64,000 bases of DNA, from NCBI GenBank assembly GCA_044892525.1, contig CM097885.1, positions 12,650,001 through 12,714,000 of the forward strand, given 5' to 3'. Made by a program: the position numbers and the translations under genes. Position 1 is the stretch's first letter. Every line of letters starts with the position of its first letter. Under the pieces are notes generated by a model. It worked only from the letters and a program-made list of their open reading frames with translations. It was not told the origin of the DNA and did not search any database. This stretch comes from Schmidtea polychroa. Taxonomy: Eukaryota. Of this stretch, positions 3 through 56,950 are shown piece after piece.

Positions 3-3000
3 ATGATAGATGACGTAGTCATGATGTACGACAAAATAATATTACGGGCTGAAGGCGACACCTCGTTAAGTGAAATGGGAATGTGGGATAATCATCAAAT
101 CATCAGAATATTGCCCATGGACGAATTCCGAACAAGAGATATAACATACCAGAAAGAAATACGAGACAGGATGAAAACGCTATACCAAAAATCAGTAGAG
201 ATAATTGAAATTCATCAACAGTGGCTAAAAGAAAAAGAGCTTCAAGGAAAAATAAAGAAACTGAGTACTAGATCCTGCAGACGAACCCCATGGGAAAGGA
301 TGTGGAATGCGGAAAACAAAGAATGGGAAATCAGGAAAGGGATTTTCGTAGAAACAGACATTGGTGAGACAGAAAGTGAATCAGAAGAAGAGGAAGATGA
401 ACCTCCAAAATACGAAGAGGACGAAATAGAATCGATATCGGATGACGAAAGCGAAACGGATGTTACGTCAGAAAGTGAAACGGAAACCAGACATATTCAT
501 GCGATGAGAAAGAAAGAACGCGAATATGCTGATATGGACAGCGAAGAAGCGATGGAAGCTCGAGAACGAGAAGAGAAGGAAAGATATAAACAATTAGGTG
601 ATATCTTAGCAACGGGAGCAAAAAATCAAAAACGACAAGTAATAGCATTGGCTAACATCATCCTAAAGACATCAGAGAATATCCACAATCTAAGAGAAAT
701 GGCGAAAGCGATTGAGGAATACCGACAATATAACGAATGGTACCCAGAACAGCTAGAACAAATTATTAGGAAATGGAGAAACCAAGAATGGGCACAAGAT
801 ACCCAGGAAAGGTATCGTATCCGAGTCAAGTATCCCGACAAAAGCATTGAGGATACAGAAGTACATCCAACAACAAAGATCAGAGAGTTAAAAAAGAAAT
901 TAGCATACGAAACTCCATTTCACCTACAACTATTCGGAAAATCGTTGGATGATAATGCAGATGTCGGAATAACACCCATGAGATTGGGGGAGATCAATGT
1001 ATTGACAATGGCAGAAACATTGGGAAAACCGATTAAAAGGAAGAGCAAATCCAGTAAACCTACGAAAGGTAGCTTGAGTACACCAAGCCCTAACAAAGTG
1101 GCGAGTAAATCAAACGAAACCGAGGAGATCGAGGAGATCATATTGGAAGACAGCGATGAAGGAGCTGGGGAAAGATCACCAATTCTGGTAAGATGGCCGA
1201 CAGGGGCCGAAATATGGACAACAAGCCAACCATCAACTAGCTATCAACAACCAAATAAGCTGAACATAGAGGAAATTGTCGATAATACGACAGAAACCGA
1301 AACTGACGAACAATTTCAACGACAAAAAGGACCAACGAAAGCAATACCAGAAGGTCAAACGGACAAAATAATAGACGAATGGAATGAGTGGCTGAGAAAC
1401 AACGCTAGCTCATTGCCAAGAACAGATAACGAGAGAAACCCGAATTATGAAACGACAAGAGAAGCCGGAACAATGATGGAGAAACGGGCAAAAGGAAGAC
1501 CCAAGAAGCAAGGAGAAAAACCAGAATTTAAAACCAGAGAACAGTTGAAACAGGAACAAGGACAAGTCAGATTAGAGAAATTGGATAAAATAGTATGGGA
1601 CCTAAAAGAGGCCCAGCCAACAATCGAAAGAGGCGAAAAATGGATACGAGAGCTAGTAAAAGATATGCTAATAATAACGAACCCACAATTGCGACGGTTA
1701 TGGCAACGAAAAGTAGCAAGCGTAGATGCCAGACAGCTATGGAATACAATATCCGGAATAATTCCGAAATTAATCAAAGAGAAGACAAAAACCACTAAAA
1801 CCGATTGGGAAGAGACAAGAAGAGTAATTGAACAATTAACTTTAAACGCAAACGACGACGAACATCATTTAGTAGTATTAACGTATCTAATGTACAATTT
1901 GATGGGATTAGCAGCAAGGAAAATACCTAACAAACAATTCGCAAATCATGTAGAAATGACCGTTACAATCATTGAAAATACAATCGAACCACATATTATC
2001 CGTGCCGGTGGGTGGAAAAGACTCATACAAGCGCCACGAAAAAACGAGCAAGAGAGATCAATGCAAATTCGGTTGAAGAAATTGCTAAACGAGCTGGAAT
2101 GGGAATTGCCATTGAAAGACCCAGCCAGCAGAAAAGCGTCGATTAATTCACTAATGATGACCATGATGATATGGGTGCTCTGCACCAGTGGAGCCGCGGG
2201 ATTTACAATTTACGACTGTGACAATTCGATAATGGGAGAAAAATATTCCTTGAGGGATATAGAGGAATGTAGACAAGCATCTCCGAATAAATTGGATGTC
2301 GTGAAAAAGAAAGTCTCTTATCATGTATACCAAGAATCAGATTTTATTAGAACACAAGCAAGAGAATGCGTAGTATCAAAGAAGGTGTTGGCATATTACT
2401 GTGGACAATATTCGTATTCAACTCTTATATTACCCGGATTAGATAAAGAAATAGTACCTATACAACGAGAAGACTGTAAAGAGCTTTTTAGAACTGGAGC
2501 GATGAGAATCAGGGATGGAGTAACAATACACGGACAAAGCGGGATGATCAAGACTGAAAGCATCTATGTAGCCGGACGAGTAAAATCGACTGATGGATCA
2601 TGTAACGGAGGCACATACACGATCAGAGGAGAAGTGATCTCGGGAGTAGTAGTAATTGAGTCCTACACAGTGGAGTTGAAGGAATACGAAGCGCAATTCG
2701 ACGCAAACAACTATCAAATGAAAACCAACCCAGCATGTAGAGCCACGGAAAACGTGTGTAGAACGGGAATTTCGACTATAATCTATGAAGCTAACACCCA
2801 AAAATGCCGACTCCAATTGTTAAAAAGTGCTTTGTTCAACGAAGTAAAAGGAGAAATTTACGAAAACGAGGATGACGATGAAGAGAATGGAAACGTAAGG
2901 ATGCGAAATGGGAAACCAGTTCCACCATCCCCCAAAGAAAAGAGACTCACAACACAAAAAACACCAACGGCATTAATTACAGATGATCCAGATATCGGTA

Positions 3001-6000
3001 TGAGATTCATCAGAGAAAAAGAGACCACCAAATGTGACAGCATAGTATATCGGACGAACTACGCAGGTATTTACATGTCAAGACAAGTAATAGACCGAGC
3101 AGTGGGAAAGGTAGCAACAGAGGACGTAAAATTGTACCTGTACGCCAATAACAAAATGGACTTTTTATTCCATCGAGGACAAACGACAATGCAAAAAGTA
3201 TATTACGATCTTATACAAAATGACTGTTCATTGAATAAAGAGATACTAAAAACAAAATTAGCCATCGCAATAACACACCCAGATAACACAATGCCATCAC
3301 TCCCGTTACCGGATGGACATTTTGGTAGAATGGTGGGAGAGGTAATGTATACATATGCATGTACCAAGACGTTTGCGCGACTGCCAAGAAAGCCCACAAT
3401 TCCACCAGGGAAATGCGCAAACGAGTTGGAAATTAGTTACAAGGGGCGAAACAGATTCGTTCAACCCGTCACTAGAATTATGAACCCAATTGGATTTTAT
3501 CCGAACACCTTTAACTGTTCAAATGCATACGGACCGTTATATGAAAAACCCGATGGGAAATGGATAATGTTACCGGTAAAAACCGAAGTACAAGAGCCTA
3601 AAAAGTTTGGATTAATAGAACTCGCAACAGAGCAAGATTTCAAACCAATTGATGTGTCAAAAGCAGGTATGTACTCACCAGAGGATTTAGAAACAGCACG
3701 ACTAAACGTACTATTCCCAGCAAGGCGAGAATCCATTTTATCGAATATGGTTACCATAACCGGAGGAACAAATTTTCAATCAGGTCCAAATTATGAATTA
3801 TTATTGTCACCCGATCATTTTCAACAAGCCACGTCAAACATGATGAAAGCAATGTGGGGAAGATTTCTAGTGTTTGGTCAGATGATGGCAGGAATATTGG
3901 GAATCATCTTGATTATCCAGATTGTCAGAGTAATATTGACTCAAATGTTAGCGTGTTTTGATATCTATAAGAGGGAAAAGAAAGTAAATTGGAAATTGAT
4001 AGTAGGTTTTTTACCATTTTTGGCGAAAACAATGGTGTTGCACGGTCATTCTAAAGATATACACAGAATAAAACGATTAATCAAAATACTGACAAAAATA
4101 AAAGGGACTGACGAGGAAGTCGGTAGACGATTTCGGAAAACAATGTATGATGAAGCAACAAGGACGCAACTGAAAAAGAACAAACCAAAATTTTTAGACA
4201 GATTTAGAAATCGATCAAACAGCAGCGATAGTGATGATGATGATAACGGGAATGACAAATATCCATATCCAAGTAGAAACCCGAACGAAAGGCAAATAGA
4301 AACAGCACCATTTTGGGAGAAAGAAAAAACAAATACCTGGATAGCTAACGGGAGCTATATACCACCAGATATCGTTGGACAACAAACAGCTTTGACCATG
4401 ACACAAAATATGTATCCACAGTTACCAAGTCAACCAGGAATGAACTATATGCCAACCCGAAGAACGAAAAGCGTAGACCAAGCTGATGACGTTCGAACAA
4501 TAGCAGTAATGAGTTCACCAGGAGGCGCGGCAGTAACAGTCATGATCCAAATCAACGGGAAAGAGACAAGCGCAATGATAGATACCGGAGCAAATGTATC
4601 AGCAATAGCAATAAACCAAATACCCAGTAAATGTTGGAAAGACATCGAACAAACAACTATCCATATTATTGCATGCAGTAAAGAAACCGTAGACGTAGTA
4701 GGAAGATGGTGGACTACGTTACGATATCAAGATAATGAAATTGAAACGTATCTAGCGGTGATACCCAAACTGAGTGAACCATGTATAATCGGAACGGATT
4801 TAATGCCGGAATTGTTCAAAGAAGTAGTAATAGATCTAACAACAATGTGCCTAAAAGATAAAATGGGTAGAATATGCAAAATGAACGCAATAATCAGATG
4901 TCCGGAGAAAATAATTGTACCAGCAAAATCCCAGATGATATGTCAAATAAAAGTGGATGCAGGAATGGAAGGAGAAGCCATTTTTGAGCCAAGTAAATCA
5001 TTCGAAAAACGACGAGAATTACCATTAGCAAGAGAAATAATAACAATAAATGACGAAGGGGAAATACCAATTAACATCACAAATTTCGAGGAAGAAGACA
5101 AGATCATATATGAAAATGAAAGATTGGGTAGATTGACACCCATGATAGACATCGAATTACCAAAAATCACCAATGAAACAACGAAAGCTGACGAATTATG
5201 GATAATCGATAGCACATTGCTAACGGAAAAAGAAAAGGAAAGACTTCAACAATTATTGATAGAATATAAAGATATATTCGCTATTTCGGACTTAGATTTG
5301 GGAGCATGCGATGTTACATTACACGCAATACCATTAATAGACGAAACTCCAATCGCACTACGTCCATACAAACTAGCAGAGAAGCAAAAAGAGATAGCCG
5401 AAGCAGAAGTACAAAAAATGCTAGATGCACAAGTGATCGAACCAAGTTGTTCGCCATGGCAATTTCCAGTAGTCATGGTGAAGAAAAAAGACGGTACTCA
5501 GAGATTCTGTATCGATTATCGGAAACTAAACGCAGTAACAAAAAGAGACACATACCCGTTACCAGACATCAATGAGATGTTACTTATGCTGCAGGGGGCC
5601 GCATATTTTACGTCTTTAGATCTAAAAAGCGGATATTGGCAGATCAAAGTTAAAGAGGAAGACAAGGAGAAAACGGCCTTCACGTTGGGTCGAGACCTGT
5701 ATCAATTCAGGAAAATGCCATTTGGACTGACCAATGCCCCAGCATCATTTCAGAGATGTATGAATTTCGTCACGCACGGGATCAAGCAGTGCATGGTATA
5801 TATTGATGATTTATTAATATATTCAGCAACATTCGAACAACATTTGGAAGATATCAGAAACGTGTTCGTTCGATTACGACAATGGAAATTGAAACTCAAA
5901 CCATCAAAGTGTGATTGGGCAAAAGAAAAAGTTACGTTCTTAGGACACATAGTGTCAGCAAAAGGCAAAGAACCAGATCCAAGAAACATAGAAAAAATAA

Positions 6001-8390
6001 AAACATGTCCAGCACCAAAAACTGTCACCCAAGTTCAAGAATTTCTCGGATTATGCGGATATTATCGAAAATTCATCAAAAACTACGCAGGTATTGCGAA
6101 ACCAATACAGGAATTAGTGAAAAAGGATATTTCATTTATTTGGGGTGCAGAACAACAAAAAGCATTTGAGACATTGCGAGATAAATTAATTGAAGCCCCA
6201 ATACTGGTACATCCTGATTTCAAGAAACCGTTCTTATTAGCAACAGATGCAAGTGGATATGCAGCCGGAGCAATATTAGGACAACTGGATGAAGAAGGAA
6301 AAGAAAGAGTGATTGGATACTACAGCAGAACGTTTAAAAAGCACGAGAAAAACTATTCCGTAACCGAGAGAGAAGCGTTAGCAATTATACAAGCGATTAA
6401 ACATTTTCGATATTTGTTATGGGGACACGAAATATGTATCACCACAGATCACCAACCATTAGTATGGCTCGGTCAGCATAAGGAGGCGTCAAGCAGATTG
6501 ATGCGATGGGCAATGCAGTTACAAGAATATTCACCGTTCATAAAATTCAAAGCGGGAAGAGCGAATGCCAATGCAGATTGTATGTCAAGATTTATCTTTC
6601 CAGATTTAGTAGATCACGAAATGCAACGAATATGTCTGATGGTGGCGGAAGATTTAGATTTTTGCCAATTACGGAAAGACCAACAAGAGGATACAGAGTT
6701 GAAGCAAATCATTGAATATGTGAAAACAGGGAAAGCAGAGGTATATGAGAAAGATCAAAAATTGAAGGAGCATATGGATAAACATCGACATCGATATATA
6801 ATAGAGAAAGATTGGTTATTGATAATGGATGGCGAGAAAAGACTGATGTGCATTCCAGAAAATAGACGTAAAGATTTGCTAACGCAATATCATGACGGAA
6901 GACTCGGAGGACATATGTCATCCAAAAGGACGTTAGCCCGAATGAAACAAAAGTATTTTTGGCCTACCTTGACCGAGGATGTAACGGAATGGGTGAAAAA
7001 TTGCATAACTTGCGCCACCAGAAAAAACACGGGAACAAAATGGAAGGCACCATTAAAGCCAATGCCAGTACCAGCAGAACCAATGACAATGATATCTATG
7101 GATGTAGTCGGTCCATTACCAGAATCAGATAGAGGGAATATATATATATTGGTGATTACGGATTATTTGACGAAATTCCCCGAAGCATTCGCTATGGCAG
7201 ATCAGAAAGCAAGAACAATCGCGAAAATACTAGTAGAGGAGATATGCTGTCGATATGGAACACCAAAACAGATATTAACTGATCAAGGAACAAATTTCAT
7301 GAGTGAAATAATGAGCGAAGTCACCAACTACTTCAAGATCGCAAAATTAAGAACATCACCGTACCATCCACAAACTAATGGTATGACAGAAAGATTCAAT
7401 GGAACATTGATTCAAATGTTATCAAATTATGTCGATCGTCACCAACGGGATTGGGATGAGTATATAAAATTGTGTTTAATGGCTTACAGAATGTCAATTC
7501 ACGCGTCCACAAAGATGAGTCCGTTCAAGTTGATGTACGGCAGAGAATGCAATATGCCAATGGATTTAGAATATCAGCCACCAATATCACAGTATATGGA
7601 AATAGATGATTATGTAACCAAGTTCAAGGAAAGAATGCAAGAAATCTGGGAAACTGCGGGATTAAATATAAAGTTTTATCAGGAAAGTTACAAAGATCTG
7701 CATGATAGAAAGAAAAACGTTAAACAACATACATTTCAAACCGGTGATTGGGTGATGATCGAAACACCAGAATTAATTCCAGGAACCACCAAAAAATTAC
7801 AACGAAACGGCAAAGGTCCGTATGAGATTCTATTCGTCGGAGAAACCAATGTGAGAGTACGATTGGTAAACAACCCCTTCACGAGGCCAATATATGTAAA
7901 CGTGGCACGATGTAAGCCAATACCGAAAACAGCCACCAGCCAGCCGGAAGGGCGAACATTAACAACAAGATCACAAACGTATAGAATAAATATGTTACAG
8001 CAGATAAACGAACCAACAGGTAACCGATTGGGGTTACAACCATCAGAAGCCGAGAAAATCATAAAGGAAGTGAAAGCTAAAATGCCCGGATGGGCAAAAG
8101 ACAGATTAGATTTTGAGATATTGGGAGGTCTGCTAACCATGATCGAAAACTATGCAAACCGAGAAAGAACACACCCATTACTCAGGGTAGTAAAAAGTCA
8201 ATGGCCTATATTATTTACGATCACAGACCATTATGGAGATACACCGCTGCACAAACTTTTAAAGGTCGGGAATAATGAACAAATACTGGAAACGATCGAA
8301 GCATTTCGCGACTGTAACATTTCGACGGATCAAGAAAACAACCAAGGTTACACTCCACTAATGATAGCAGCCAATCGGGATAAAGCTTAA
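3..8390 (+). CDS. pol: Retroelement polyprotein (UBL, Bcl-2-like, glycoprotein, aspartic protease, RT, RNase H, integrase, start of ankyrin repeats); frame open at window start
   Basis: AMIDTGANVS (DTG at 4581), RFCIDYRKLN, LDLKSGYWQ, MPFGL, YIDD (5799-5810), ATDASG, H-x6-H...CxxC, DVVGP/TDQG/ERFN integrase motifs, GPY motif. Confidence 0.97.
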   Translation: MIDDVVMMYDKIILRAEGDTSLSEMGMWDNHQIIRILPMDEFRTRDITYQKEIRDRMKTLYQKSVEIIEIHQQWLKEKELQGKIKKLSTRSCRRTPWERMWNAENKEWEIRKGIFVETDIGETESESEEEEDEPPKYEEDEIESISDDESETDVTSESETETRHIHAMRKKEREYADMDSEEAMEAREREEKERYKQLGDILATGAKNQKRQVIALANIILKTSENIHNLREMAKAIEEYRQYNEWYPEQLEQIIRKWRNQEWAQDTQERYRIRVKYPDKSIEDTEVHPTTKIRELKKKLAYETPFHLQLFGKSLDDNADVGITPMRLGEINVLTMAETLGKPIKRKSKSSKPTKGSLSTPSPNKVASKSNETEEIEEIILEDSDEGAGERSPILVRWPTGAEIWTTSQPSTSYQQPNKLNIEEIVDNTTETETDEQFQRQKGPTKAIPEGQTDKIIDEWNEWLRNNASSLPRTDNERNPNYETTREAGTMMEKRAKGRPKKQGEKPEFKTREQLKQEQGQVRLEKLDKIVWDLKEAQPTIERGEKWIRELVKDMLIITNPQLRRLWQRKVASVDARQLWNTISGIIPKLIKEKTKTTKTDWEETRRVIEQLTLNANDDEHHLVVLTYLMYNLMGLAARKIPNKQFANHVEMTVTIIENTIEPHIIRAGGWKRLIQAPRKNEQERSMQIRLKKLLNELEWELPLKDPASRKASINSLMMTMMIWVLCTSGAAGFTIYDCDNSIMGEKYSLRDIEECRQASPNKLDVVKKKVSYHVYQESDFIRTQARECVVSKKVLAYYCGQYSYSTLILPGLDKEIVPIQREDCKELFRTGAMRIRDGVTIHGQSGMIKTESIYVAGRVKSTDGSCNGGTYTIRGEVISGVVVIESYTVELKEYEAQFDANNYQMKTNPACRATENVCRTGISTIIYEANTQKCRLQLLKSALFNEVKGEIYENEDDDEENGNVRMRNGKPVPPSPKEKRLTTQKTPTALITDDPDIGMRFIREKETTKCDSIVYRTNYAGIYMSRQVIDRAVGKVATEDVKLYLYANNKMDFLFHRGQTTMQKVYYDLIQNDCSLNKEILKTKLAIAITHPDNTMPSLPLPDGHFGRMVGEVMYTYACTKTFARLPRKPTIPPGKCANELEISYKGRNRFVQPVTRIMNPIGFYPNTFNCSNAYGPLYEKPDGKWIMLPVKTEVQEPKKFGLIELATEQDFKPIDVSKAGMYSPEDLETARLNVLFPARRESILSNMVTITGGTNFQSGPNYELLLSPDHFQQATSNMMKAMWGRFLVFGQMMAGILGIILIIQIVRVILTQMLACFDIYKREKKVNWKLIVGFLPFLAKTMVLHGHSKDIHRIKRLIKILTKIKGTDEEVGRRFRKTMYDEATRTQLKKNKPKFLDRFRNRSNSSDSDDDDNGNDKYPYPSRNPNERQIETAPFWEKEKTNTWIANGSYIPPDIVGQQTALTMTQNMYPQLPSQPGMNYMPTRRTKSVDQADDVRTIAVMSSPGGAAVTVMIQINGKETSAMIDTGANVSAIAINQIPSKCWKDIEQTTIHIIACSKETVDVVGRWWTTLRYQDNEIETYLAVIPKLSEPCIIGTDLMPELFKEVVIDLTTMCLKDKMGRICKMNAIIRCPEKIIVPAKSQMICQIKVDAGMEGEAIFEPSKSFEKRRELPLAREIITINDEGEIPINITNFEEEDKIIYENERLGRLTPMIDIELPKITNETTKADELWIIDSTLLTEKEKERLQQLLIEYKDIFAISDLDLGACDVTLHAIPLIDETPIALRPYKLAEKQKEIAEAEVQKMLDAQVIEPSCSPWQFPVVMVKKKDGTQRFCIDYRKLNAVTKRDTYPLPDINEMLLMLQGAAYFTSLDLKSGYWQIKVKEEDKEKTAFTLGRDLYQFRKMPFGLTNAPASFQRCMNFVTHGIKQCMVYIDDLLIYSATFEQHLEDIRNVFVRLRQWKLKLKPSKCDWAKEKVTFLGHIVSAKGKEPDPRNIEKIKTCPAPKTVTQVQEFLGLCGYYRKFIKNYAGIAKPIQELVKKDISFIWGAEQQKAFETLRDKLIEAPILVHPDFKKPFLLATDASGYAAGAILGQLDEEGKERVIGYYSRTFKKHEKNYSVTEREALAIIQAIKHFRYLLWGHEICITTDHQPLVWLGQHKEASSRLMRWAMQLQEYSPFIKFKAGRANANADCMSRFIFPDLVDHEMQRICLMVAEDLDFCQLRKDQQEDTELKQIIEYVKTGKAEVYEKDQKLKEHMDKHRHRYIIEKDWLLIMDGEKRLMCIPENRRKDLLTQYHDGRLGGHMSSKRTLARMKQKYFWPTLTEDVTEWVKNCITCATRKNTGTKWKAPLKPMPVPAEPMTMISMDVVGPLPESDRGNIYILVITDYLTKFPEAFAMADQKARTIAKILVEEICCRYGTPKQILTDQGTNFMSEIMSEVTNYFKIAKLRTSPYHPQTNGMTERFNGTLIQMLSNYVDRHQRDWDEYIKLCLMAYRMSIHASTKMSPFKLMYGRECNMPMDLEYQPPISQYMEIDDYVTKFKERMQEIWETAGLNIKFYQESYKDLHDRKKNVKQHTFQTGDWVMIETPELIPGTTKKLQRNGKGPYEILFVGETNVRVRLVNNPFTRPIYVNVARCKPIPKTATSQPEGRTLTTRSQTYRINMLQQINEPTGNRLGLQPSEAEKIIKEVKAKMPGWAKDRLDFEILGGLLTMIENYANRERTHPLLRVVKSQWPILFTITDHYGDTPLHKLLKVGNNEQILETIEAFRDCNISTDQENNQGYTPLMIAANRDKA
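810..1010 (+). other. Ubiquitin-like domain within polyprotein
   Basis: YRIRVKYPDKSIEDTEVHPTTKIRELKKKL...QLFGKSLDD follows the ubiquitin pattern (I.VK...; V.P..TI..LK.KI; L.F.GK.L.D). Confidence 0.65.
1600..2040 (+). other. Bcl-2-like helical domain within polyprotein
   Basis: BH2-like EPHIIRAGGWKRL, preceded at Bcl-2-like spacing by a hydrophobic helix HLVVLTYLMYNL; canonical NWGR of BH1 absent. Confidence 0.55.
2148..3960 (+). other. Env-like glycoprotein (class III fusion / chuvirus-G-like): internal signal, Cys-rich ectodomain, TM anchor
   Basis: Signal LMMTMMIWVLCTSGAAG then FTIYDC...YSLRDIEEC; ~550-aa Cys-rich ectodomain; TM MMAGILGIILIIQIVRVIL. Confidence 0.75.
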
Positions 8391-11219
8391 GATATTATTA
8401 TCGCATTACTTGAAACTGGGTCAAAGATAACCACACAAGATCACAACCAGAAAAATGCACTACATCATGCAATCGAAGGGAAAAGTACGAAAGCCTTCAT
8501 AATCTTAGTAGATCTATTATCATACGAGGATAATAGGGAGATAGGAAACATGTATGACGGGCTATTAACTGCAATCAAAGAGAAATTAATAACAATTGCT
8601 GGATTACTAATTGCATGGAGGAACCCGATCAAAAACGATTATATGGTAGATATAAACGAAACATTTACCAAAGGAGAAAACACCTTGATGAGAGAAGCGA
8701 TGAGAGGACATCACCTATTCGAAATTCCAAATCAACTACTACAACGTGGCATAAAGTTCTCAAATCACAAAGACGAACAACTAATTAGAAAACGAATTAC
8801 CAACTTCGAAAAAGCTATATCTCAATTTACCGATAAAGTACAAGTAAAATTTTGGGAAACCGTGAGTGTATTATATATGATGGAAAATATGAATAACATT
8901 CGAGAAACTTACCTAAGCATTATTCAAGTTCTAACGGCAGAGGAACGCATTAACAGTTCGAACAAGAAAAAGATAAAAATCAAGAAAATAACAGCAAGGG
9001 AGTCTGAGAAACAAGTCAATCAAATAATAAGCGATATAGCAACAACAAGTAAACCAAAGATAATAAACTCCGACCAAGAGATAGTAGTACGTAAGGCTAA
9101 AGAAGTATTCTTGGAAGAAATGCAAGATCTATCCGATGAAGTGATACTAGCAAAAATAACAAAAACAGTACACACCTACGCAAGAGACCAGACCACAAAT
9201 CTAGACATAGGAAAAATAAAAACATTTATACCACTCGCATTCACCTTACCAACAAAAGATTCAAGAACACCATTACAACAAGCCATTTTAGCAGCAAAAG
9301 AAAACAGAGCAATAACCATCATAAGAATTCTTAGAGACTTCGGAGAAGAATCTAATGCAAAAAATGAATAAGGAGAAACAGCAATGATGTATGCAGCAAT
9401 AACAAAGATACACCCGAAAACCTTACATATACTACATCAATCAGGTTCGAGACTTGACGAAATATCAAACGAAGGAAATTCTACCATGGATTGGGCAACA
9501 ATACAACCAAACTTGGAAATGATTAGATTCATTTGTAAAAATGCTACAAGAACTGAGGTAGAAAATATCTGTAAAAACACGTCACAGTTCCAATGGAACA
9601 CGATACGGATGAACTTAGAAGCCATGAAGTTATTGCTAACATGGAAAATACCGCAAAGCAATAAATATGCAATAAATATAAATGAGTTCTACGAAAACGG
9701 AGAAAATGCTATGGTTAAAAATACACTAACAAAAGGAGGAACTCCGAAAATCATAATGATCGTATTGAACAGAGAAGACCTCAAATTCACGCAAAATCTA
9801 AACGAACAAAAGCGAATCGGAAAACATCGCCGTATACAATTGAGAGAACTGGTAAAAGAATGGAATAGAAAGAGACATGTAGCAACAGGCAGAAAAGAGT
9901 TTGAATTCGAAGCAAAATTAGCAAGAAACAGAGTGCTAACGGCATACCGCAGATTGTTGAATGATATAAATGTCGAGGACGACATTTTAAACGATAGCGG
10001 GGGAGATGAAGACGATAAAGACGACGATAATAATGAAAAAGGTCGAAACGGGAATAAAGAGAAAGAGAAATCAGAGGAGAATAATCAAGAAAATAACGAC
10101 GCGAGTAGGAAAAAAGAGGAAAATAACCCGGGAAACCGAATGAAGCAAGAAGAAAAGACGAATAGTGGAAAACAGAGGGTATGCCTACTTTTTACCAACA
10201 AAGAAATGGAGACAAATATGATGATAATGATACTCGTATTAACAATGGTGGAAATGATAACAGCCCAGGGAGGAATGAGAACGATAAAAGAAGCCAAAGA
10301 AACGGAAAATAAGGACAACAAAGAGGAAGAACTAAAACAAGAAAAGAAAAAACAAGTACAAGAGCAGCAATGGGATCTAAAAGAAGAATGGGATTTAAAA
10401 GAAAGGTGTATATTAGGAAGATGTATGTCTAGAGCTTATCAGAGACTAGTGTTAAAAAATGAAGATGCAGAACCAATAACGGAAGTGGGAATACAAGAAG
10501 CGTACCAACATCGAAACGGGAAGAAGATAACAAAAGTCAAATGGAAAGAGGTACACCTGAGTAAAGGAGGTGAAATAGTGATAACACAGCTTCAACCAAG
10601 AAAAGAGCACAAAGTGTGTATTTCAAGGCTAGGCCCAGGAGAAAATTGTCTACAATATGTAACGCAACAACAACCACCAAAGGAATATACGGTCTGTATC
10701 CTGAGAAACGGTCCAGAAAGAGAATGTCGACGATACCCTGGGAAAAGAGGGAAGAAAAGAAAAATCAATGACGAAAAAGATGAGCAAGGAAAACGCAAGA
10801 AAACCAGTGAGAAACATCAGGACAATTATGTATCCGAGGAGGAGATGGAGAAAATACAAAAAATGGCAAAGGAAGGTATGAACGAGGAAATAGCAAGAAT
10901 ACGAGGAATGATAAAAGGAAATGGCAAAGACGGTAATCTAAAAAGCACAGAGGCAATATCAACAATAACGAACAAGGAAAAAGCGGAAATTATAAGCGTG
11001 AAACAGATGATGTGGATCAGCGGCATAATAATAACAGGGGCCTTTTTAATCATAACGAGGGGGACAATAAAAATAATCAAAGATAGACGGCATCGCGGAG
11101 AACTAGAAATGGCCAGAATAAGAAATTTTCAACATCGTGTAAAACGACCAAGTAATATCAAGCGGGAACAGTGGGTGGAGGCCTGGAATGCTCAGCGCCC
11201 TCCAAGCTCACGTATATAG
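8391..11219 (+). pseudogene. In-frame continuation of the polyprotein: ankyrin repeats, acidic linker, second signal peptide + ectodomain + TM; broken by TAA at 8388-8390 and 9369-9371
   Basis: ORFs starting 3, 8550 and 9384 share one frame; stops fall inside ankyrin repeats (GYTPLMIAANRDKA*DIIIALLETGS; SNAKNE*GETAMMYAA). Confidence 0.85.
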
Positions 11220-11387
11220 AAAGGATTATGACTGTATATAGATTGTAAAAAGTAAGTAGATAATATTTATTTATATAACAGTATGATATATTTTTATATA
11301 ACCGCGGTATCAATATTATATAACGATGGGGATAAATAATATAAAAATAAAATTGGATAAGGGTTGAAAAGTATATATAAATTAAGA

Positions 11388-11747
11388 ATGGAGCGAATAG
11401 GCGAGGAAGTAAATCACAGTACGACAACCGAGGAGATGTGGAAACAACAATGTGCAATGTTAACTCAAGTGATTTCGAATTTACAGGAACAAGGACTCGC
11501 TGTACAAAGAAGCTTAGTCGAAAGTTTAAATAAAGGCTTCAGTTATGTAAGAATAATCGAAGACCAACGAATAAAAATAGAACAAATGCAGCGAGAGATA
11601 GACCGAATATCACGACACAGCCAGGTGCAAGAAGAGGAGTTAATAAGAATCGCGGAAGAGATGGAGCGAGAGGAGATAGAAGACTGGTCAGAATGGTTAA
11701 CCAGTAGGGAAGAGGGCGGACAAGAGGCCGACTCTTCCAGCCAATAA
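11388..11747 (+). CDS. Accessory coiled-coil protein of the retroelement
   Basis: ATG at 11388 within ORF 11364..11747; E/Q/R-rich heptads; composition like the polyprotein. Confidence 0.6.
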   Translation: MERIGEEVNHSTTTEEMWKQQCAMLTQVISNLQEQGLAVQRSLVESLNKGFSYVRIIEDQRIKIEQMQREIDRISRHSQVQEEELIRIAEEMEREEIEDWSEWLTSREEGGQEADSSSQ

Positions 11748-11836
11748 ATATAACCTAAAATAGCAATGTAAATAACTGTAAATAAAAATACGAAACTGTA
11801 CCAGTAACGAATATATGTATATATATAATTATAGAA

Positions 11837-13225
11837 ATGGATAAGCGACAACGAGAAGAATTCAAAGAAATTGTTGAACAAGTCAGAAAGTCCACCACAA
11901 TTCGAATACACAACCATGTAACGTGTGGAATATGCAAGAGCTTATTAAGAGAACCTCACCAAACCAGATGTGGATGCAGAATGTGCAGAGAATGTGTAGA
12001 GGAGATAATAAAGAAGGGACCACAATGGTGCCCAGTATGTAAAGAAACCATGATAGCAAGTTTGGGAGATACAAACGAAGATAAAGCAGCCGTGAAAGAT
12101 ATGTTAAATTCAAATTTAGGATGTAAAAACACCCCATGCAATTGGCGAGGAGTGATATGGGAAGTGAGGCAACATATGGAGCAATGTGAGTATAAAATCA
12201 GTCAATGCAAACGTTGCCAAGAAGAGATTAAAGTCAATGAAGAAGCAGAACATCAAAGTCGATGCGAAGAAAGACTGGAGAAATGTGAGTATTGCGGAGA
12301 AACCGACACCTGGAAAAAACTAATCAGTCAACATCACAACATACAAGAGGAGAAAGTGTGCGCAGGGTTCAGAGGAGAATGTCCCAATAAATGCGATAAA
12401 TCTGGAGTAATAAGACTCGCTCAACATCTCAGAGAATGTGAAAGGAAAAAGATAACGTATGTGCTAGGAAAATGGGGATGTCAGAAACAATTACACCGAG
12501 GAGAATTACTCCAACATCTAGCAGAAAACGTATCAACACACGCGGAAATATGGTCAACGGTATTACAAGAAAACGAAAGGAAAACCGAAAACTTAGAGAA
12601 AGAAATGGTCTCGCTAAAAGCGTTGGTAAAAGAGTTATTGGAAGAAAAGGAAGCATTTGAAGGGGCGAGAACAAGTACAAAGATACAGACAGATCTAGTG
12701 GAAACTAGCAACATTATGGTGAAAGAACTACATCAAAAAGTAAGCGAATTAAACCTCAACGAATTAATACCAACGGCTCCATACATATGGAAAATAACGG
12801 GAGTAAAAGAGAAGATGCAGAGAGCGAGAAATGGAAAGGATACAACATTACTAAGTCCAGCATTCTACTCATGGAAAAACGGGTATAAAATGAAAATGAA
12901 AGCATACCCCAATGGGGATGGAAGTGCATACGGAACGCATTTCTCAGTATTCTTCTTGATGTGCAAAGGGCTATACGACGAGTTAATAGAATGGCCATTC
13001 AAAGCAAAAATAGACCTCGCAATGATGAACTATCAAAGTATACATGAACAGAGTTTCCATACAGCGGGAAACCTCGTATGTTACCAAAGGCCCTTGGAAG
13101 AAGAAGGACCAGCAACTGGAGCACCGAATTTCATCCTACAGCGGAAAGTAGAAGACATGACGAGAAACGACACTATATACATAAAAATAGCGGTGAGGCG
13201 AGACGGGAAGAGTAGGACTGAGTAG
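11837..13225 (+). CDS. TRAF-like protein (RING, TRAF zinc fingers, coiled coil, MATH), intronless
   Basis: CGICKSLLREPHQTRCGCRMCREC...CPVC; CKNTPCNW; MATH YIWKI...LLSPAFY...GYKM...YPNGDGS.YGTHFSVFF...EWPF...DTIYIKI. Confidence 0.95.
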   Translation: MDKRQREEFKEIVEQVRKSTTIRIHNHVTCGICKSLLREPHQTRCGCRMCRECVEEIIKKGPQWCPVCKETMIASLGDTNEDKAAVKDMLNSNLGCKNTPCNWRGVIWEVRQHMEQCEYKISQCKRCQEEIKVNEEAEHQSRCEERLEKCEYCGETDTWKKLISQHHNIQEEKVCAGFRGECPNKCDKSGVIRLAQHLRECERKKITYVLGKWGCQKQLHRGELLQHLAENVSTHAEIWSTVLQENERKTENLEKEMVSLKALVKELLEEKEAFEGARTSTKIQTDLVETSNIMVKELHQKVSELNLNELIPTAPYIWKITGVKEKMQRARNGKDTTLLSPAFYSWKNGYKMKMKAYPNGDGSAYGTHFSVFFLMCKGLYDELIEWPFKAKIDLAMMNYQSIHEQSFHTAGNLVCYQRPLEEEGPATGAPNFILQRKVEDMTRNDTIYIKIAVRRDGKSRTE

Positions 13226-13443
13226 AGAGACGAATAATTTTGTATATACTAATTGTAAATATCGGCATATATACCCCGTAAAATATTATATAGTAGTGTA
13301 GAAAAATCCCCCAAATCTACTAAAGGTAAACTTAAGCGTAAAACTCCTAAAACAACTCCTATAACGAATTGTAAAAATAAATAAATAATAAACCAGATAT
13401 AAGCGTACAACGTTGAGTTAATGATATCGTTATTTAGACAAAG

Positions 13444-14480
13444 ATGACTCAAGATCAAACGGAAGCCCCAAATAACGAAATAAACATCAGTAGAATACAT
13501 AGAGAAAGATGGGCCAAAGTGATGGCACAATTATCAAATCAAACACGAAATTACCTCGAAGAAGCGAGAGAATGGGAAAACCACCAGTTCCAGTGGTTAG
13601 TACAGAATTTACGGACGGAGGCCGAGGCCTGCAAAAGAGCCGCCAAATGGTCTGCATTAGAAAATACCAGGCAAGAGGCACACGGGCATTACCTGAAGCA
13701 GCTGGTACAGGAGTCAAGAAAAAGACTAACGGATGAGAATAAGAAGCGGGAAATAGAAAAACAAAAGGGGAACGAAAGACCCGCCAACTATTAGCAGAAG
13801 CCAGAAAGTGGAAAAAACAACATATAGAAATCCAAAAAGAGATGAGAGAATTGCCGCAGAGATTGGAACACGAGAGTGATCAAGGGAAATGGGAAGAAAA
13901 CCGGGATCAGAAAGAAGAGCTAAGAAGGCTCCGGAAAGTAGCAGCTAGAAGTCAAACCTGGCAGACCAAGGCCATGGAATTTGAAAAGCATCTGGCCATG
14001 AAACTGTCCATGAAGGAACAGGAGAATACCGCCATGGAAGAGATGATCCTGCAACAGTCAGGTAGAATCGTCGAACTCGTAAACAAGGTGGCAGACCTTG
14101 AAAGAGACAATAACGGCTATAAGGGGGCACTAGAACAAAGGAATATAGTGCTAGCCGGTAAGAACAAGAACTTGGAAAACGAGAGGAAGATGTATGACGA
14201 AAATATCAAGAACCTCGAAAAGGAGATCAAAAAATGGGAGAACGGCGAAAAAGCGGAGGAGTTAGAAAAACAGATAGAAGTAAGAGATGATGAAACCAGG
14301 TATCTGACATACCTGTTAGACGAGGAACTCAACGTGTCAAGAGCGCTAAGAGACGAAGTTCAGGAGCTTAGAGCGCAGATTCCCCGGTACTACATCCCAT
14401 TCGATCCCATCGCAATCCAACTACAAACGTCAATAGACAGCGATGAAGGGTATGTAGGCCAGGAAGAAACCTTTGTATAA
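13444..14480 (+). pseudogene. Accessory coiled-coil protein, probably one gene split by a frameshift near 13770-13790
   Basis: ORFs 13444..13794 and 13842..14480; the second frame is open upstream (LLAEARKWKKQH), echoing YLEEAREWENH in the first. Confidence 0.55.
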
Positions 14481-14531
14481 AGATAAGGAGAAAAGATAAA
14501 AAAAAAATATAAAAAGCGGGACCTGTATCCC

Positions 14532-14557
14532 AAAAAAAAAAAAAAAAAAAAAAAAAA
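14532..14557 (+). repeat. Poly(A) tract (A26) in accessory-gene spacer
   Basis: Direct reading. Confidence 0.9.
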
Positions 14558-14672
14558 TTATTAGTACGATAAAAATATTTACGGGACTGTAACCCTGATT
14601 ATATAAAATTACCTATAAATGTATAAGTATAAGCCGCACTGTAGCGCACTATTAATTGTAAATATTGTAGAA

Positions 14673-15380
14673 ATGAAAATAGAAGAAATATCCACCATGA
14701 CCGAGCTAGAAGAGGGAGAAATTGAAACAGACCCCATAAAAATGAAAACGCCGAAGGACGAGTTGATAGAGGAGAAACAGGAAAAAGAAAGGATGATAGA
14801 CAAATATATGGATGATCGAAGAATGATAAAGGTGCTAAAAAGGGAATGCAAAACATTGGAGGAAATAAAGAAAGAAGTAGAAGTAGAAAACGAATGGCTT
14901 CACGAACAAAGAAAGCGAGGGAGAAACTGGGAAAAGATCGCGGAAGAATTATGGCAGGAGAGAGCCAGTTTCAAGGCAAACGAAGTAATTGAAGATTATT
15001 GGAAAACGGAAGCAAGGAAACGACAAGAAACCATCAAGGAGTTAGAAAACCAGCTGGAAGTAAAAGTACAAGAAAGTACAGAAATGGAGAAATGGAATAG
15101 TAAATATCGAGAAATAGAAACAAAACGGCAGAAACAAAACTCAAAGACAAACGACCCAGAGGAACATGATTTCCTACAATGGGAACTGGAACGGAACCTG
15201 AAAGAAAAGAAGAAGGAGATAAAAACCTTGAAAAGAGAGATAAGACACTTGACAGACAAGGTCCACGAGAAAGAGAGACAACTAGAAATGTTGCCGGAAC
15301 TCCGACATAGAGTCATTAAAGCGGAGTCTAAATTAATGCGAATCCGGGAGAAAAACCCTAAAAAGAAACGACAAAATTAA
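14673..15380 (+). CDS. Accessory coiled-coil protein with basic C-terminus
   Basis: ORF 14619..15380, likely ATG 14673; long E/K heptads; ends KNPKKKRQN. Confidence 0.65.
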   Translation: MKIEEISTMTELEEGEIETDPIKMKTPKDELIEEKQEKERMIDKYMDDRRMIKVLKRECKTLEEIKKEVEVENEWLHEQRKRGRNWEKIAEELWQERASFKANEVIEDYWKTEARKRQETIKELENQLEVKVQESTEMEKWNSKYREIETKRQKQNSKTNDPEEHDFLQWELERNLKEKKKEIKTLKREIRHLTDKVHEKERQLEMLPELRHRVIKAESKLMRIREKNPKKKRQN

Positions 15381-15424
15381 AACCGACAAAAAGCGATGTA
15401 TATAAATGTGTATAAAATTACTAA

Positions 15425-16099
15425 ATGTATATCAGTAGTATGAGAAACAAACCGATCATAGTAATCCTGATGATGACGATAGTCCTTGATCTGGCAAGGC
15501 GACAACCCGTAAAACCCGAAATTGAACATATTCGAGACAGCAGAAAACCCAACCAAAAGACCGAACCAACAGCCAAATCATGCATCTATCCAAGTATCAT
15601 AAAAACCCGTCTTACCGACAATATTCGAGCCACCCGAACGTACGTCAACAATATCAGATTAATGTGTAATAACCACCCCATGTGCAAAATTATTGATAAA
15701 AGAATCCTGGACCAAATTCACCAACTCGATCAGCTGGAACAACAGGTCCAACATCAAGAAATACAAAACCCAGTCGAACCAGTAGAAATCGCCAAAGAAA
15801 TAAATGACCACCATGAACTCCTCTACGTAGTAATCGTCGAAACCACCGTAATCATGGTAATCATCCTCCCAAAAATCCATAATATCTACCAAGTTTGGAA
15901 GAAAAGTCACCCCGTACCGGAAAGATCGTCTCGAAGATCCCAAGAAGCTAATATGGCTGACGTAATCCAAGAAAATCTCCGACAACGAACCTCCATCGCA
16001 GAAACAGTCAGACCGTCCACAAGTCGCCGAATATACTACAACATCGAAACCCAACCACCAAATCACCCATCATCAATGGCAACCGAACAACAAACATAA
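15425..16099 (+). CDS. Accessory predicted membrane protein
   Basis: N-terminal hydrophobic IIVILMMTIVL, three Cys, TM-like LLYVVIVETTVIMVIILP, cytoplasmic tail. Confidence 0.6.
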   Translation: MYISSMRNKPIIVILMMTIVLDLARRQPVKPEIEHIRDSRKPNQKTEPTAKSCIYPSIIKTRLTDNIRATRTYVNNIRLMCNNHPMCKIIDKRILDQIHQLDQLEQQVQHQEIQNPVEPVEIAKEINDHHELLYVVIVETTVIMVIILPKIHNIYQVWKKSHPVPERSSRRSQEANMADVIQENLRQRTSIAETVRPSTSRRIYYNIETQPPNHPSSMATEQQT

Positions 16100-16354: not shown

Positions 16355-17114
16355 TGTTGGGCCAAGCTCTGAAGGTGTTGGAAAAACGAACCCAGGAAGA
16401 GACAGAGTAAATAAAATAAAAACATATAAAAATTACGAGAAATATAGGAAGAAACAAATTAAACATCCATAAAGAGACAAGAATAACTAAATAAAATAAC
16501 AAAACCTGTAAAGGGGAAATAAGACAAAAGGGAAGGCACCCAATGAGCATAACAGTAAAAGAGAAATAAAATGGCACAAAATTTAAGAAAAACAAATGAA
16601 AATTAAAGGAAAACAAAATAAAAATAAAATCATCCATAAGGTTAATTAAAACAAAAAATGAAGTTACAATAAAATAGCAATAAAACCACAGAAAAATAGG
16701 AGAAAAATAATAAAAAATAGGAAAATAAATAAAACAATAATAGAAATAGGTAGGGTCATTAAAATATAATATACTACGATAAGAAAAACATAAAATAATA
16801 ATAAATAACAAAATTACAAGCAAGGTGTGTCCTGATTGGACGGAAAATAATATATAAAGAGCAACCAAACTCTGTAGAGTATCATTCTAACCCGAAACTC
16901 TACAGGTAAAATTTATTTAAAAATTATCATTCTAACCCGAAACTCTACAGGACGAAACTAGGAACCACTCACGAGCACAGACTTACGAACGATATTCATA
17001 CTTGGACATAACAGATAGTACTTAGAGGCAAATAATAGTCGAGATCGAATCCAGTTGAGAAGAACCAGTCTAACTAAGGAAAAATTTGACAAAACTTTGA
17101 TTTCAATCCCAACA
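16355..17114 (+). repeat. Probable 3' LTR (760 bp)
   Basis: 7-bp inverted termini TGTTGGG/CCCAACA; internal TATATAAA near 16850; ~27-bp internal duplication (16880, 16925); 5' LTR not in window. Confidence 0.6.
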
Positions 17115-19290
17115 CCTTCGGAGAATTTTGGTAAATTATGTTTTGAATTTTAGTATGATAATTTTAATGTTTACTATGAATTTAATATCAAAAGACGTTT
17201 TATGTTTCAATAAAATTTATATTTAAAAACAAAAGATGTTGCTTTCTCTCTATGATGCTGGCGACGACGCCTTTTGGAGTTCGGGTATGATGCGGCTAAA
17301 TTACGTGTGCATTTCAGAGAGAGCTTATGAATATGAATACCCAGAAATTGAATTGACAGAACCAGCCAAGGATCTACATGAACTTGGGTACTATGATGAT
17401 TACTTAATGAATGTAAAAATGTACGATGGCAAGAGTCATCATACCCGGAATCCAGATGGCGTGGTCGCTAGGTAAACGTTTATTTATTTGATTTTTCTTT
17501 TAATTTCATTATTCCCATATTTGTTTGACAGTAATATGAATTTATTAATTGTACATTTATTGGAGAAGGATTTGAGATAAGTCGGGTCGAGTTGTCCTTC
17601 ACGACGGTCCAAGGGCAGTGGGCAGAAATGCGTACTGTCCTTGGGTGGGTTGTGAGGGGTGAGGAAACCCTGTGAGAGAAAACGAATCGAGTCAATGATC
17701 TTTCCATCGAGTGCTATCTATAAAATTAGCCGTCGAAAGCTTTCTATTGAGGAAACTTCTGAGCGATACTGTTTCGATGCCGACAACGTGCTGACCGAAA
17801 ATTCTAGGAGATCGACGACATTTTTCGAGATTTAATCCGAGTTTGAGTTTGGCTATATTCAATTCAGAGCTAAGTTACTTCTTTTCGTCAGAATGTGAAT
17901 ATCGACTATCCTTGAGGGTAATGAAATTCTCGAACTTCACTGATAATTCTAACGTCCATTTTCGTTTCTTGATGAATGATAAAAATCTAGAATATTCTAT
18001 ATTCCTAAGAATTGATAAATTAAGAGAACGTTAGCGATTAAACCCATCGCGGTGATATGTCAGTTGACGAGTAGGAGACTTAATTATCAACCTTCGATTA
18101 GCTGCTGTCATCGATAAGAATTTGCCCTGACAGAAAAGTAAATAGCAAAGTTCTAATTAATCATAGGTACTTACTACAGTCCTAAAGGAAATTATCAACG
18201 ACCATTTCGAACAAATTATCGATAAATTTTCCATCTGATCGAGAAACGACTATTGCAGGGAAGCAAGTAGCGTAGATAAAATATCCCAGCAGTTCGATTG
18301 TGGAACGACATGCGCCAAATCGATGAGACGATTAGGTTTTTTGAGAATAGTCAACATTCACGAGAGAGACAGGAGTTAAATCCATTCTTACCCGGTAACA
18401 GATTTGGGCAATCTTGAAATCATAACAATCGTTACTTCTATAAGCCGGACTCATTATCTTCCATCCGTCTAGCCCATCTGCTAGTAATGTTATAACTGAG
18501 ATAAGCAGACCCAAACCCATACACAGATAAATCCACTAATACATGGGACGTGAGTGAGTCGACATCATCATTGCGTCATAGTAGAATGTGTTAGTAGGCA
18601 TGCATAAATAAGCGACGAGATCAAAGTACACTAACAGACACAATGTCTAGAATTTGTTAAGAGAGGACAGCGATAATTGAGTAAAACGAGATAATACACA
18701 TTAGCGCACATCAGGTAGAGTCTGAAACCAGTACACAACTACATACCGATACGCGTCGTTATGACAACATGAAATGCGAAAATTTAAATAATTAAATTAT
18801 AATTTATGAGGGAAATTAATACTAATAATAATTTTTAACAAATTCGTTTTAACCTAACACAGCGCAAAAATGCATCAACAGCATGGAACTACTTCTTTTA
18901 AATTAAAGCAGGCATAACTCAATAAGCCATAAAAACCAGGGAGTAGACCCACCTTCAATAGGTCATAATAAATAAAAGTAAAAAAATATATTAGTGGTAA
19001 GGAGTAACTTATTGCGATTAGATGATAACTGTCGACCCAGGAACCTAGGTACAATATCAATATGGGTAGAGAAATAACGTGTGATGGTTCTCATTTTCTC
19101 TTCATTACGAACGATGTGATGAGTTGATTTGAAGGTTTACGGTTTGGATGAGTTAAGTGATGTCAAAGGTATGGATGTGGGGGACAATCCTGATTGTATG
19201 CATATGTGGTAGGATAAAGCCCACGATAAAAAGAAAATAAATAGTAGAAAGGATTTTAATGATGTAAATAACGGACTTCTCATTCTTTAG

Positions 19291-20052
19291 ATGACTACTC
19301 CTACAACTGCTGAGAAAACTCTTCGCCCATGTTTCTCCTGCGCGGATAAAAATGCAGATATCGCGCAGCTCCATCTATACATCGGGGCTTTAAAGAAAAG
19401 AATCGACCTTTACGAAGGCACGTGGTTCTCCCCGCCACAAATGAAGGAGGAACGAAAGAAAATCCTCCGGTTAGAACATTGTAAAGATAGCTTGCTGGAG
19501 GAAAGCCGATGCCAACGGCTTACAATCAAAGCCCAATCAGAAGCCCTCCACAAGGTTTATACGGAGGCAGAACTCGCCAAGCGGGTACGGGAATTTCCCG
19601 TCATAGAGAAAATGAACGTTTTCCCTCTTCATCATCAAGTATCCGAACCGACTGCTACGAGCCGCCAAGGGCATGGATCGTGCCTACCGCCCATTCCAGC
19701 TCCAATCTTATCGGGTTCTCAACCCTTGGTAGGTAGACCTACCGAGCCCATCTTGGCTCCAATCTTGGGGGCAACCGTCGTCACCCCGCACACTGACAAT
19801 CCCCCGTCGTCTCGCAAACGGAAACGGCCGATCCGAGCCGAGAAAAATCAGAAACGCCGAGATGCGATGGCTGCTCTCGAGGCGTCACTATCTGTAGCTC
19901 AATCTACCATAAGAGAAATATCCTCCAGCCATTCCATCCCATCAAAGGAAATCTTTCGTGTAATACCGGCAGAAGGCATCAAGTACATTTCTAACCCACG
20001 ACTGCCGGTCGATATCGACGCAATGCTTGCGGATGGAGAACCCTTCGATTGA
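19291..20052 (+). CDS. Hypothetical protein (CxxC, coiled coil, Pro-rich, NLS-like RKRKRP)
   Basis: 253-aa ORF in GC-elevated DNA, preceded by acceptor-like CTTTAG. Confidence 0.5.
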   Translation: MTTPTTAEKTLRPCFSCADKNADIAQLHLYIGALKKRIDLYEGTWFSPPQMKEERKKILRLEHCKDSLLEESRCQRLTIKAQSEALHKVYTEAELAKRVREFPVIEKMNVFPLHHQVSEPTATSRQGHGSCLPPIPAPILSGSQPLVGRPTEPILAPILGATVVTPHTDNPPSSRKRKRPIRAEKNQKRRDAMAALEASLSVAQSTIREISSSHSIPSKEIFRVIPAEGIKYISNPRLPVDIDAMLADGEPFD

Positions 20053-20595
20053 TCAATTCAAAGGTGCCTTGTTCTATGCATGGTCCCGAAGTGAACTTGC
20101 GTGTTTATAAATGCTGTATGTTTGCATGTAAAACAGTTCTTGATTATTCTGCGTGTAATGATTTGTTATAAGTTAATAAATCTTTTATTGTTTCTGATGA
20201 TTGATTTTAACAGGTGAGGTATCGAAGTTGATACGAGTGAAAAGATGATGTCGAATTAGGTGATAATACAAGGTCGTCCCCTTGGACCAGGGTCGGACCG
20301 AATTGTGTATGTAGGACTGGGTAAGACCTTCTAAGGCACCATAGAACCCGTACCGAGAAAGGGTTAGGAGTAGTCTTAAGGCAGAGGCTCACCTGCTAAC
20401 CTTTTCCAACCCGTGTGGGCAGCACCAACGTGGAACACCACCACGGGCCCATGCGTGGGAATATGTACATGATCATTTGGTGTATGTATGGGGAGTATCT
20501 GAGCGGAGTAATGATGCAGGGTGTGTGAGATGATGATGTGTGCAATAATTTCTTTTTCCCCACATATGCCAACAATAATAATTCAGTATTTTTCC

Positions 20596-23807: not shown

Positions 23808-23898
23808 TTTAGTACAACTTCATCATTATACGACACAGATATTTTGAGTTGAAGAATCATTCACCTTCGCTGACGAATTATATATTGATAAACTTGAT

Positions 23899-44539: not shown

Positions 44540-44643
44540 TTGAATTTTTGTCATTTTTTAAATTTTTATTATAAAAAATGAATAATATAAATCTTAAAAA
44601 ATAAAATGAAAACAGGGTATCCAATAAAAAATTTTTTCTAAAA

Positions 44644-48924: not shown

Positions 48925-49027
48925 AACCAACGATATTTAATAATAAAATGTCGACAATTAATTTAAGCAACTATAGCAACCTGATCTACTTTTTTAAAAA
49001 TACACCCATTTTATAAGTAAGAATTCT

Positions 49028-49606: not shown

Positions 49607-49614
49607 TTTAATAA

Positions 49615-50624: not shown

Positions 50625-50648
50625 TTATTAATAATTTAAAATGAATCT

Positions 50649-51413: not shown

Positions 51414-51461
51414 TTCTTTAGTAGTAAATTCATATAGTAAAAATCCTTATAGTAAAAATCC

Positions 51462-52776: not shown

Positions 52777-52798
52777 TTTAATGGTATCAAAAATGGTA

Positions 52799-54175: not shown

Positions 54176-54186
54176 GGCTTGTCGAC

Positions 54187-55590: not shown

Positions 55591-55607
55591 TTTAAAATGT
55601 TAAAATA

Positions 55608-56894: not shown

Positions 56895-56950
56895 TTTTAT
56901 ATATTAAAATTTACACACACAAAATAGGATTAAATAAATATATTATGTAA

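Follow-up and report, generated by a model that had tools for sequence, protein, structure and literature searches.

Among described mobile elements, the closest to the one analyzed here is planarian Burro, whose 4,873-aa polyprotein carries a Ubi2/SUMO-like motif ahead of BCL-2, an env between BCL2 and protease, ankyrin and MATH-TRAF; the BCL2-like motif is credited to Grohme 2018 by the same source (PMC6431247). In passages of two further reports, BURRO1 transcripts go up upon PIWI knock-down (PMC8532177) and the RING and BIR cargo of Burro1 shields planarian stem cells from caspase-mediated death (PMC13465017). Captured and diverged Bcl-2 proteins are also described in viral genomes (herpesviral, asfarviral, poxviral and adintoviral), adintoviruses carrying Bcl2 as cargo, in the relevant parts of PMC11209288 and PMC8502044. 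Like the domain studied here, the viral proteins are diverged forms of Bcl-2 that a mobile or viral genome has captured; they differ in being encoded by stand-alone genes of DNA viruses, whereas ours is a domain within a retroelement's structural polyprotein.

The window, a 64,000-nucleotide stretch of Schmidtea polychroa contig CM097885.1 (positions 12,650,001 to 12,714,000; assembly GCA_044892525.1), holds part of a giant Ty3/gypsy LTR element whose outer LTR ends lie 28.6 kb apart, a 2.4-kb internal deletion included (Table 1). The 5′ LTR (L016:2003-6222) and the 3′ LTR in the window are of equal length, and their 99.7% identity, TG/CA ends and 4-bp target duplication indicate a young element spanning these 28.6 kb. 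The polyprotein reading frame occupies window positions 3-8390, starts ~600 bases upstream of the window and encodes 2998 aa. At least 150 copies of the helical domain are present in the genome at 94-100% identity (150 of 905 candidates were scored), an in-match stop is found in 5 of the 150 scored copies, and the longest open frames reach 4811-4817 aa. Contigs from three runs that we guess to be RNA cover 30, 13 and 7 of 30 bins, with no joint shown. A 253-aa ORF is present inside both LTRs (window 19291-20052, +; L016:4939-5700), and a number of accessory ORFs, most of them charged or coiled-coil-like and with no convincing Pfam family, lie downstream of the polyprotein and ahead of the 3′ LTR (window 11361-16099, +).

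Table 1. Features of the element in the window, and of copy L049 where stated
Feature	Position	Strand	Evidence and remarks
Ubl-like repeat 2, C-terminal half	3..116	+	Starts ~130 bases upstream of the window; same repeat in L049 gives Ubiquitin_4 E 0.2, weak alone
Ubl domain; full-length copies have it as the last of three repeats	810..1013	+	No di-glycine; Pfam ubiquitin, Atlas, family profile, dN/dS 0.053, shuffles
Ser/Thr/Glu-rich linker, predicted disordered	1014..1481	+	pLDDT about 24-40; 85% identity between subfamilies
Basic GRP motif, common to family B	1482..1511	+	
Diverged Bcl-2-like helical domain	1632..2027	+	BH1 slot ~1851-1871; BH2-like motif 1992-2015
Hydrophobic helix ahead of Env; putative internal signal peptide, possible tail anchor	2154..2201	+	
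Env, Monjiviricetes-type fusion glycoprotein	2202..3970	+	Pfam PF24664 E 2e-72; TM helix ~3858-3968 by hydropathy
Protease, reverse transcriptase, RNase H, integrase, same frame as Env	4539..7370	+	Pfam RVP, RVT_1, RT_RNaseH, Integrase_H2C2, rve
Ankyrin-containing polyprotein tail	8220..11219	+	Stops at 8388 and 9369 interrupt the window copy
Accessory RING-TRAF-MATH ORF within element	11786..13225	+	Pfam MATH_2 E 7e-25, zf-C3HC4 E 1e-4
3′ LTR	16355..20574	+	4220 bp, TG...CA, 99.7% identity to 5′ LTR, 4-bp target duplication
Three Ubl-like repeats, family A copy L049	L049: 3981-4196, 4500-4748, 5445-5640		

Judged by its architecture, and matched to published Burro by description, the element qualifies as Burro-type. 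It shares with Burro/GYPSM1 (PMC6431247) a length of ~30 kb, long LTRs, a polyprotein of ~4,800 aa (4,873 published, up to 4,817 here), Gag, CCHC knuckles, Ubi2/SUMO-like and BCL2-like motifs, an in-frame env, PR-RT-RH-IN, ankyrin and MATH-TRAF. The two differ in that MATH-TRAF is a separate downstream ORF here, that full-length copies carry three Ubl-like repeats against the one motif of PMC6431247, and that the window copy is devoid of Gag. The BIR reported for Burro1-4 was found neither in Pfam scans nor as a BIR-like motif in 139 ORFs of at least 50 aa outside the polyprotein, so the element is placed as Burro-type rather than shown to be Burro1 itself. An IAP-type RING ORF without BIR, located soon after the 5′ LTR (L016:6623-7138; Pfam zf-C3HC4_3 E 1e-8), may correspond to the IAP-like cargo published for Burro1. 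The succession of Ubl, BCL2-like and env is thus already in print for Burro (PMC6431247). Three Ubl repeats, loss of NWGR and a tail-anchor role are absent from section 7 of PMC6431247 and we found no other description of them, though the primary Burro figures and supplements may show Ubl repeats or BH1 loss.

The sequence-only reading had placed the Ubl and Bcl-2-like domains in an N-terminal polyprotein, and this placement did not hold, since the region is a Gag-Env junction ahead of which fuller copies carry Gag and zinc knuckles. In copy L049, Gag (Pfam E 5e-10) and zinc knuckles lie upstream of the Ubl/Bcl-2-like region. Relative to L049 the window copy lacks ~790 codons in frame, a size derived from motif coordinates, and with them the capsid part of Gag, the zinc knuckles and Ubl repeat 1; the deletion was placed at L048:772-810, just upstream of the window, against L049:2034-4442. 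Of 40 places scored, one has the deletion junction, namely the window copy. The window copy thus lost Gag by deletion, and the region under study is therefore not a true N-terminus. The order from Gag to Env was observed in L049 and that from Ubl to integrase in the window. This private in-frame Gag deletion and the three Ubl-like repeats are small additions to the published architecture.

Pfam searches of the genome yielded three further families, B (L051, L058), C (L063, L065) and D (L067), besides the window's family A. Families B-D share an order that runs from Gag or its knuckles through one or two Ubl and a Bcl-2-like domain to the Env signal helix, and their helical domains are 14-22% identical to that of the window. 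Ubl-like repeats number three in full-length copies of family A, two in C and D, and one in B. The basic motif common to families A and B ahead of the helical domain is presumably AT-hook-like or nuclear-localisation-like. A family B fragment (BH2 and Env start) was also seen at L016:917-1462, just outside the 5′ LTR.

Evidence that the helical domain is a captured, diverged Bcl-2 came from sequence profiles, which bore out the homology that had been proposed, whereas fold search favored it weakly. The window domain alone scored below the curated Pfam Bcl-2 cut-off (E 0.02-0.028; 15.9 bits against 31.4), and as a single-sequence PDB query it retrieved one unrelated protein and nothing relevant. 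Pfam Bcl-2 was matched at E<=0.1 by seven of seven element domains (best 9.8e-7), with some family B copies above the curated cut-off (L050, 32.2 bits; L053, 32.6 bits). A profile of the seven element rows only retrieved 125 PDB sequences at E<=1, with a best E of 6.9e-4 over helices 4-8, and all 60 matches listed were Bcl-xL or Bcl-2. Alignment by hhalign of the element domains with seven non-retroelement Bcl-2 sequences of the genome, at least one of them Maverick-borne, gave 94.7% probability (E 5.9e-8, 67 columns); the two family A rows alone gave only 15% against the same profile. The profile of the seven non-retroelement genes assigned the window domain 11.7 bits; the shuffles (2000, of which 1927 were reported) peaked at 9.8 bits and 70 other windows of the polyprotein at 6.9 bits. 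With the Bcl-2-like profile of sister families B-D the domain received 27.7 bits, and the shuffles (1943 reported) reached 8.4 at most. With the sister families included, we regard the homology of both domains as settled, and for the Bcl-2 family in particular we hold it with high confidence. By sequence comparison, the window's family is the most diverged of the four in this domain. Searches beyond the genome, each weak evidence, returned no relatives at E<=0.001 by phmmer among 1.84 billion representatives, a score for 0 of 290 candidates in a word-index search among longer proteins, and nothing above 0.85 for the Bcl-2-like domain in Atlas.

The motif HIIRAGGWKRL, read beforehand as BH2-like in a domain lacking NWGR, was located at 1992-2024, and NWGR is indeed absent. 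The corresponding slot reads DDEH (or DEHH) in family A, NRDK in B, DRDV in C and DKEV in D, in a register uncertain by one residue; no family retains the W or the G, and in place of the Arg stand His, Lys, Val and Val. The GGW of BH2 is present in seven of seven rows, and the first BH2 Trp in B, C and D, with His in family A only. No BH3-like pattern was found in the window domain. The domain thus resembles the cellular family (PF00452; Bcl-xL, Mcl-1, BAK) in homology over helices 4-8, BH1-BH2 spacing, the BH2 GGW and a downstream hydrophobic helix, but differs from it in the missing NWGR and BH3 pattern, in the His for the first BH2 Trp, in being embedded in a polyprotein and in that the helix is the Env signal.

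Two AlphaFold models were made, one from 13 rows including host genes and one of 414 aa from the seven element rows only. The 13-row model shows eight helices at pLDDT 60.9, and its Foldseek ranks 1-16 were all Bcl-2 family (E 0.19-0.5, TM 0.34-0.44); this model is biased because host genes were included in its alignment. For the 414-aa model (pLDDT 46.6), rank 1 was an unrelated axonemal protein (E 0.011, TM 0.10) and ranks 2-13 were Bcl-xL or BAK (E 0.056-0.14). Neither model gave anything at E<=0.001, and TM-scores were ~0.3-0.5. Foldseek against viral models likewise returned nothing at E<=0.001, with Bcl-2 homologues at ranks 2, 8, 10, 18, 25 and 41 of the best 50 and no poxviral-named protein among those 50 non-significant, in some cases unnamed, matches. 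VIA-align of the low-confidence 414-aa model against 48,161 chains placed no Bcl-2 or ubiquitin entry among the best 50, its best matches being generic helical bundles (Z 8.6, rmsd 2.8, 75 aligned). The fold check suggested with the sequence-only reading therefore leans weakly, and at low confidence, toward a predicted Bcl-2 bundle; for the beta-grasp fold, the last strand is unformed and no ubiquitin entry is among the Foldseek matches listed.

The ubiquitin-pattern segment without a C-terminal GG was found at 813-1010, corresponding to aa 271-336 in the frame from base 3, and no GG is present in aa 260-350. Its ubiquitin-like character was upheld by sequence profiles and received no confirmation from the fold search. 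Alone, the window Ubl matched Pfam ubiquitin at E 0.014-0.019, under the curated cut-off, and a single-sequence PDB search brought up a pair of designed ubiquitin variants (E about 0.9). Four of ten element repeats matched Pfam ubiquitin at E<=0.1 (best 0.0018). The Ubl profile of families B-D gave the window Ubl 14.9 bits against a shuffle maximum of 10.7 (1929 reported shuffles). At E<=1, a profile of ten Ubl repeats matched 339 PDB sequences, with ISG15 ahead among single domains (E 4e-6); lower E-values in this search are sums over polyubiquitin; the 60 matches listed were ubiquitin, ISG15, UBD, Get5 and ubiquitin-derived scaffolds, with one exception labelled ADP-ribosyltransferase. In Atlas the Ubl scored 0.90 to ubiquitin clusters, and its ten best named matches all belonged to one clan, as also happens in a third of shuffled proteins. 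In the 414-aa model the Ubl forms strand-strand-helix at pLDDT 55-64, having been folded only within that piece. Integral Ubl domains (PF00240, PF11976; ISG15, Get5) share the ubiquitin pattern of ~66 residues and the profile matches to ISG15, ubiquitin and Get5, whereas the element differs in the missing C-terminal GG, in its three dispersed repeats and in a fold search without confirmation. Since the repeats lack GG, they are likely to be non-conjugated interaction modules and not ubiquitin tags.

Purifying selection on the domains is evident at the codon level, as judged from pairwise counts with one pair per family. Between the window and subfamily copy L061, dN/dS was 0.053 for the Ubl, and dN was 0.045 for the Bcl-2-like domain with synonymous sites saturated. 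The linker (dN/dS 0.04) and Env (0.045) are likewise constrained, so that constraint in family A extends over the polyprotein and does not single out the Bcl-2-like domain. In the family B pair the Bcl-2-like domain is 78% identical, whereas the Ubl and the linker reach 60% and 59% and the spacer that follows the domain 50%.

In a tree, the six element domains fell on one side of a branch with unstarred support of 89/91, near Maverick-type Bcl-2 genes with support of only 44/55, and we therefore claim no donor. A putative cellular Ubl-Ubl-Bcl-2-like gene, at a computed location and represented by 153 ORF pieces with unassembled exons, matched the element profiles at a best E of 0.023, which is not significant. 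Maverick/Polinton-like elements of the genome carry many copies of small, stand-alone Bcl-2 genes whose products have a hydrophobic tail (L073:7778-8233, −; L033-L047; L074), with an adenovirus-type protease, an A32 ATPase, an integrase and a small TBP as neighbors. Beyond the 3′ LTR, the window contains an IAP-type RING ORF (21311-21871, −; E 5e-10), a PolB fragment (22401-23819, −; E 4e-15) and an ORF (25090-25947, +) resembling one in the L073 Maverick, from which the retroelement seems to be inserted in or beside a Maverick-like element. Further along are a long ORF cluster that looks Maverick-like by eye (44605-56903; PolB-like, ATPase-like and integrase-like) and a low-complexity tandem repeat with long open frames on both strands (61438-62254).

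When a polyprotein contains an internal signal sequence, the chain ahead of it stays in the cytosol and is still held at the membrane once cleavage has taken place, in the manner of a tail-anchored Bcl-2 protein, here at the ER. In all four families the Env signal helix is the most hydrophobic 19-residue stretch after GGW, at distances of 49 (window), 51, 23 and 35 residues; its Kyte-Doolittle 19-residue mean is 1.52 in the window, the lowest value, for a helix that is short and of moderate hydrophobicity, and 1.96-2.43 in families B-D. An Env signal helix that doubles as a tail anchor would fit this layout in four of four families. From polyprotein topology, the part ahead of the helix would stay cytosolic, and signal peptidase would cleave past the helix, which would remain as a C-terminal anchor and hold the Bcl-2-like domain on the cytosolic face of the ER. 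By analogy, the tethered domain may damp host cell death by a non-canonical route that does not use the NWGR groove contacts. Our preferred reading, to which we give an even chance, is thus a Ubl and Bcl-2-like cargo module between Gag and Env that would act as an ER-tethered, non-canonical cell-death damper. It is in keeping with the RING-TRAF-MATH and IAP-type RING cargo of the element and with the stem-cell protection reported for the Burro1 RING and BIR cargo (PMC13465017), and is opposed by the consideration that an ER anchor would not bring the domain to mitochondria. In passages of PMC5691656, the NWGR Arg pairs with the BH3 Asp in solved complexes, and mouse Boo has SWSQ in place of NWGR with no pro-death protein bound; the part of PMC11209288 on deerpox DPV022 describes an anti-apoptotic protein despite no recognisable BH motifs. 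The Boo and DPV022 precedents imply that loss of NWGR weakens the canonical mechanism while leaving an anti-death role possible. Elsewhere in the genome, a cellular multi-exon gene that appears Bak-like by eye (L071:9300-9976, +), with a BH3-like helix at ~9535-9630, is a candidate partner.

The domain may instead no longer control death and, together with the signal helix, serve as a matrix-like tether or spacer that keeps Gag at the Env membrane. This alternative, which we consider rather unlikely, would account for the position of the domain directly ahead of Env in four of four families despite 14-22% identity to that of the window, for a lost BH3-contacting motif beside retained GGW and core positions, and for the finding of no matrix-type domain ahead of Gag in L049; however, the signal helix could suffice by itself, and the other cargo (TRAF, RING, Ubl) suggests host signalling.

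Such signalling is the subject of a second alternative, in which a Bcl-2-fold scaffold directed against innate signalling is partnered with the TRAF and Ubl domains of the element and not with BH3 motifs, and for which we take vaccinia A46 and B14 to be models. The missing NWGR, the RING-TRAF-MATH ORF in the same element and the example of vaccinia A49, given in part of PMC4358236 as a Bcl-2 fold without Bcl-2 function, agree with it. The sequence matches and the non-significant fold matches point the other way, to cellular Bcl-xL/Mcl-1/BAK and to herpesviral or adintoviral Bcl-2, as does the retained BH2 GGW, and we judge this scaffold unlikely. A more elaborate proposal combines capture with tethering: a Bcl-2 fold captured once by an ancestor, possibly via a Bcl-2-bearing Maverick, and stripped of NWGR would do the work of a matrix protein by pinning Gag next to Env at the ER, with the helix as anchor, and may also enter particles and be carried into the next cell; we hold this to be doubtful. 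Chance likeness in a helical, charged part of a long polyprotein, which could explain the sub-threshold score and empty PDB search of the window domain alone and the low hhalign probability of the family A rows, is highly improbable and largely refuted by the profile matches, hhalign and shuffles, given that sister families reach Bcl-2 at E 1e-6 and that positional homology is seen both by BLAST (E 7e-9 over a span taking in the Env start) and in the B-D profile score relative to shuffles.

Captured Bcl-2 is familiar in DNA viruses; it is unusual for such a domain to form part of a retroelement's structural polyprotein. The elements that carry it here are numerous as well as young, and with NWGR lost from four of four families, interest shifts from the canonical groove to a non-canonical mechanism. 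If the ER-tethered death damper is the correct reading and cell death is blocked, the domain would join the Burro1 IAP-like cargo as a second survival factor, and stem cells and regeneration might be affected.
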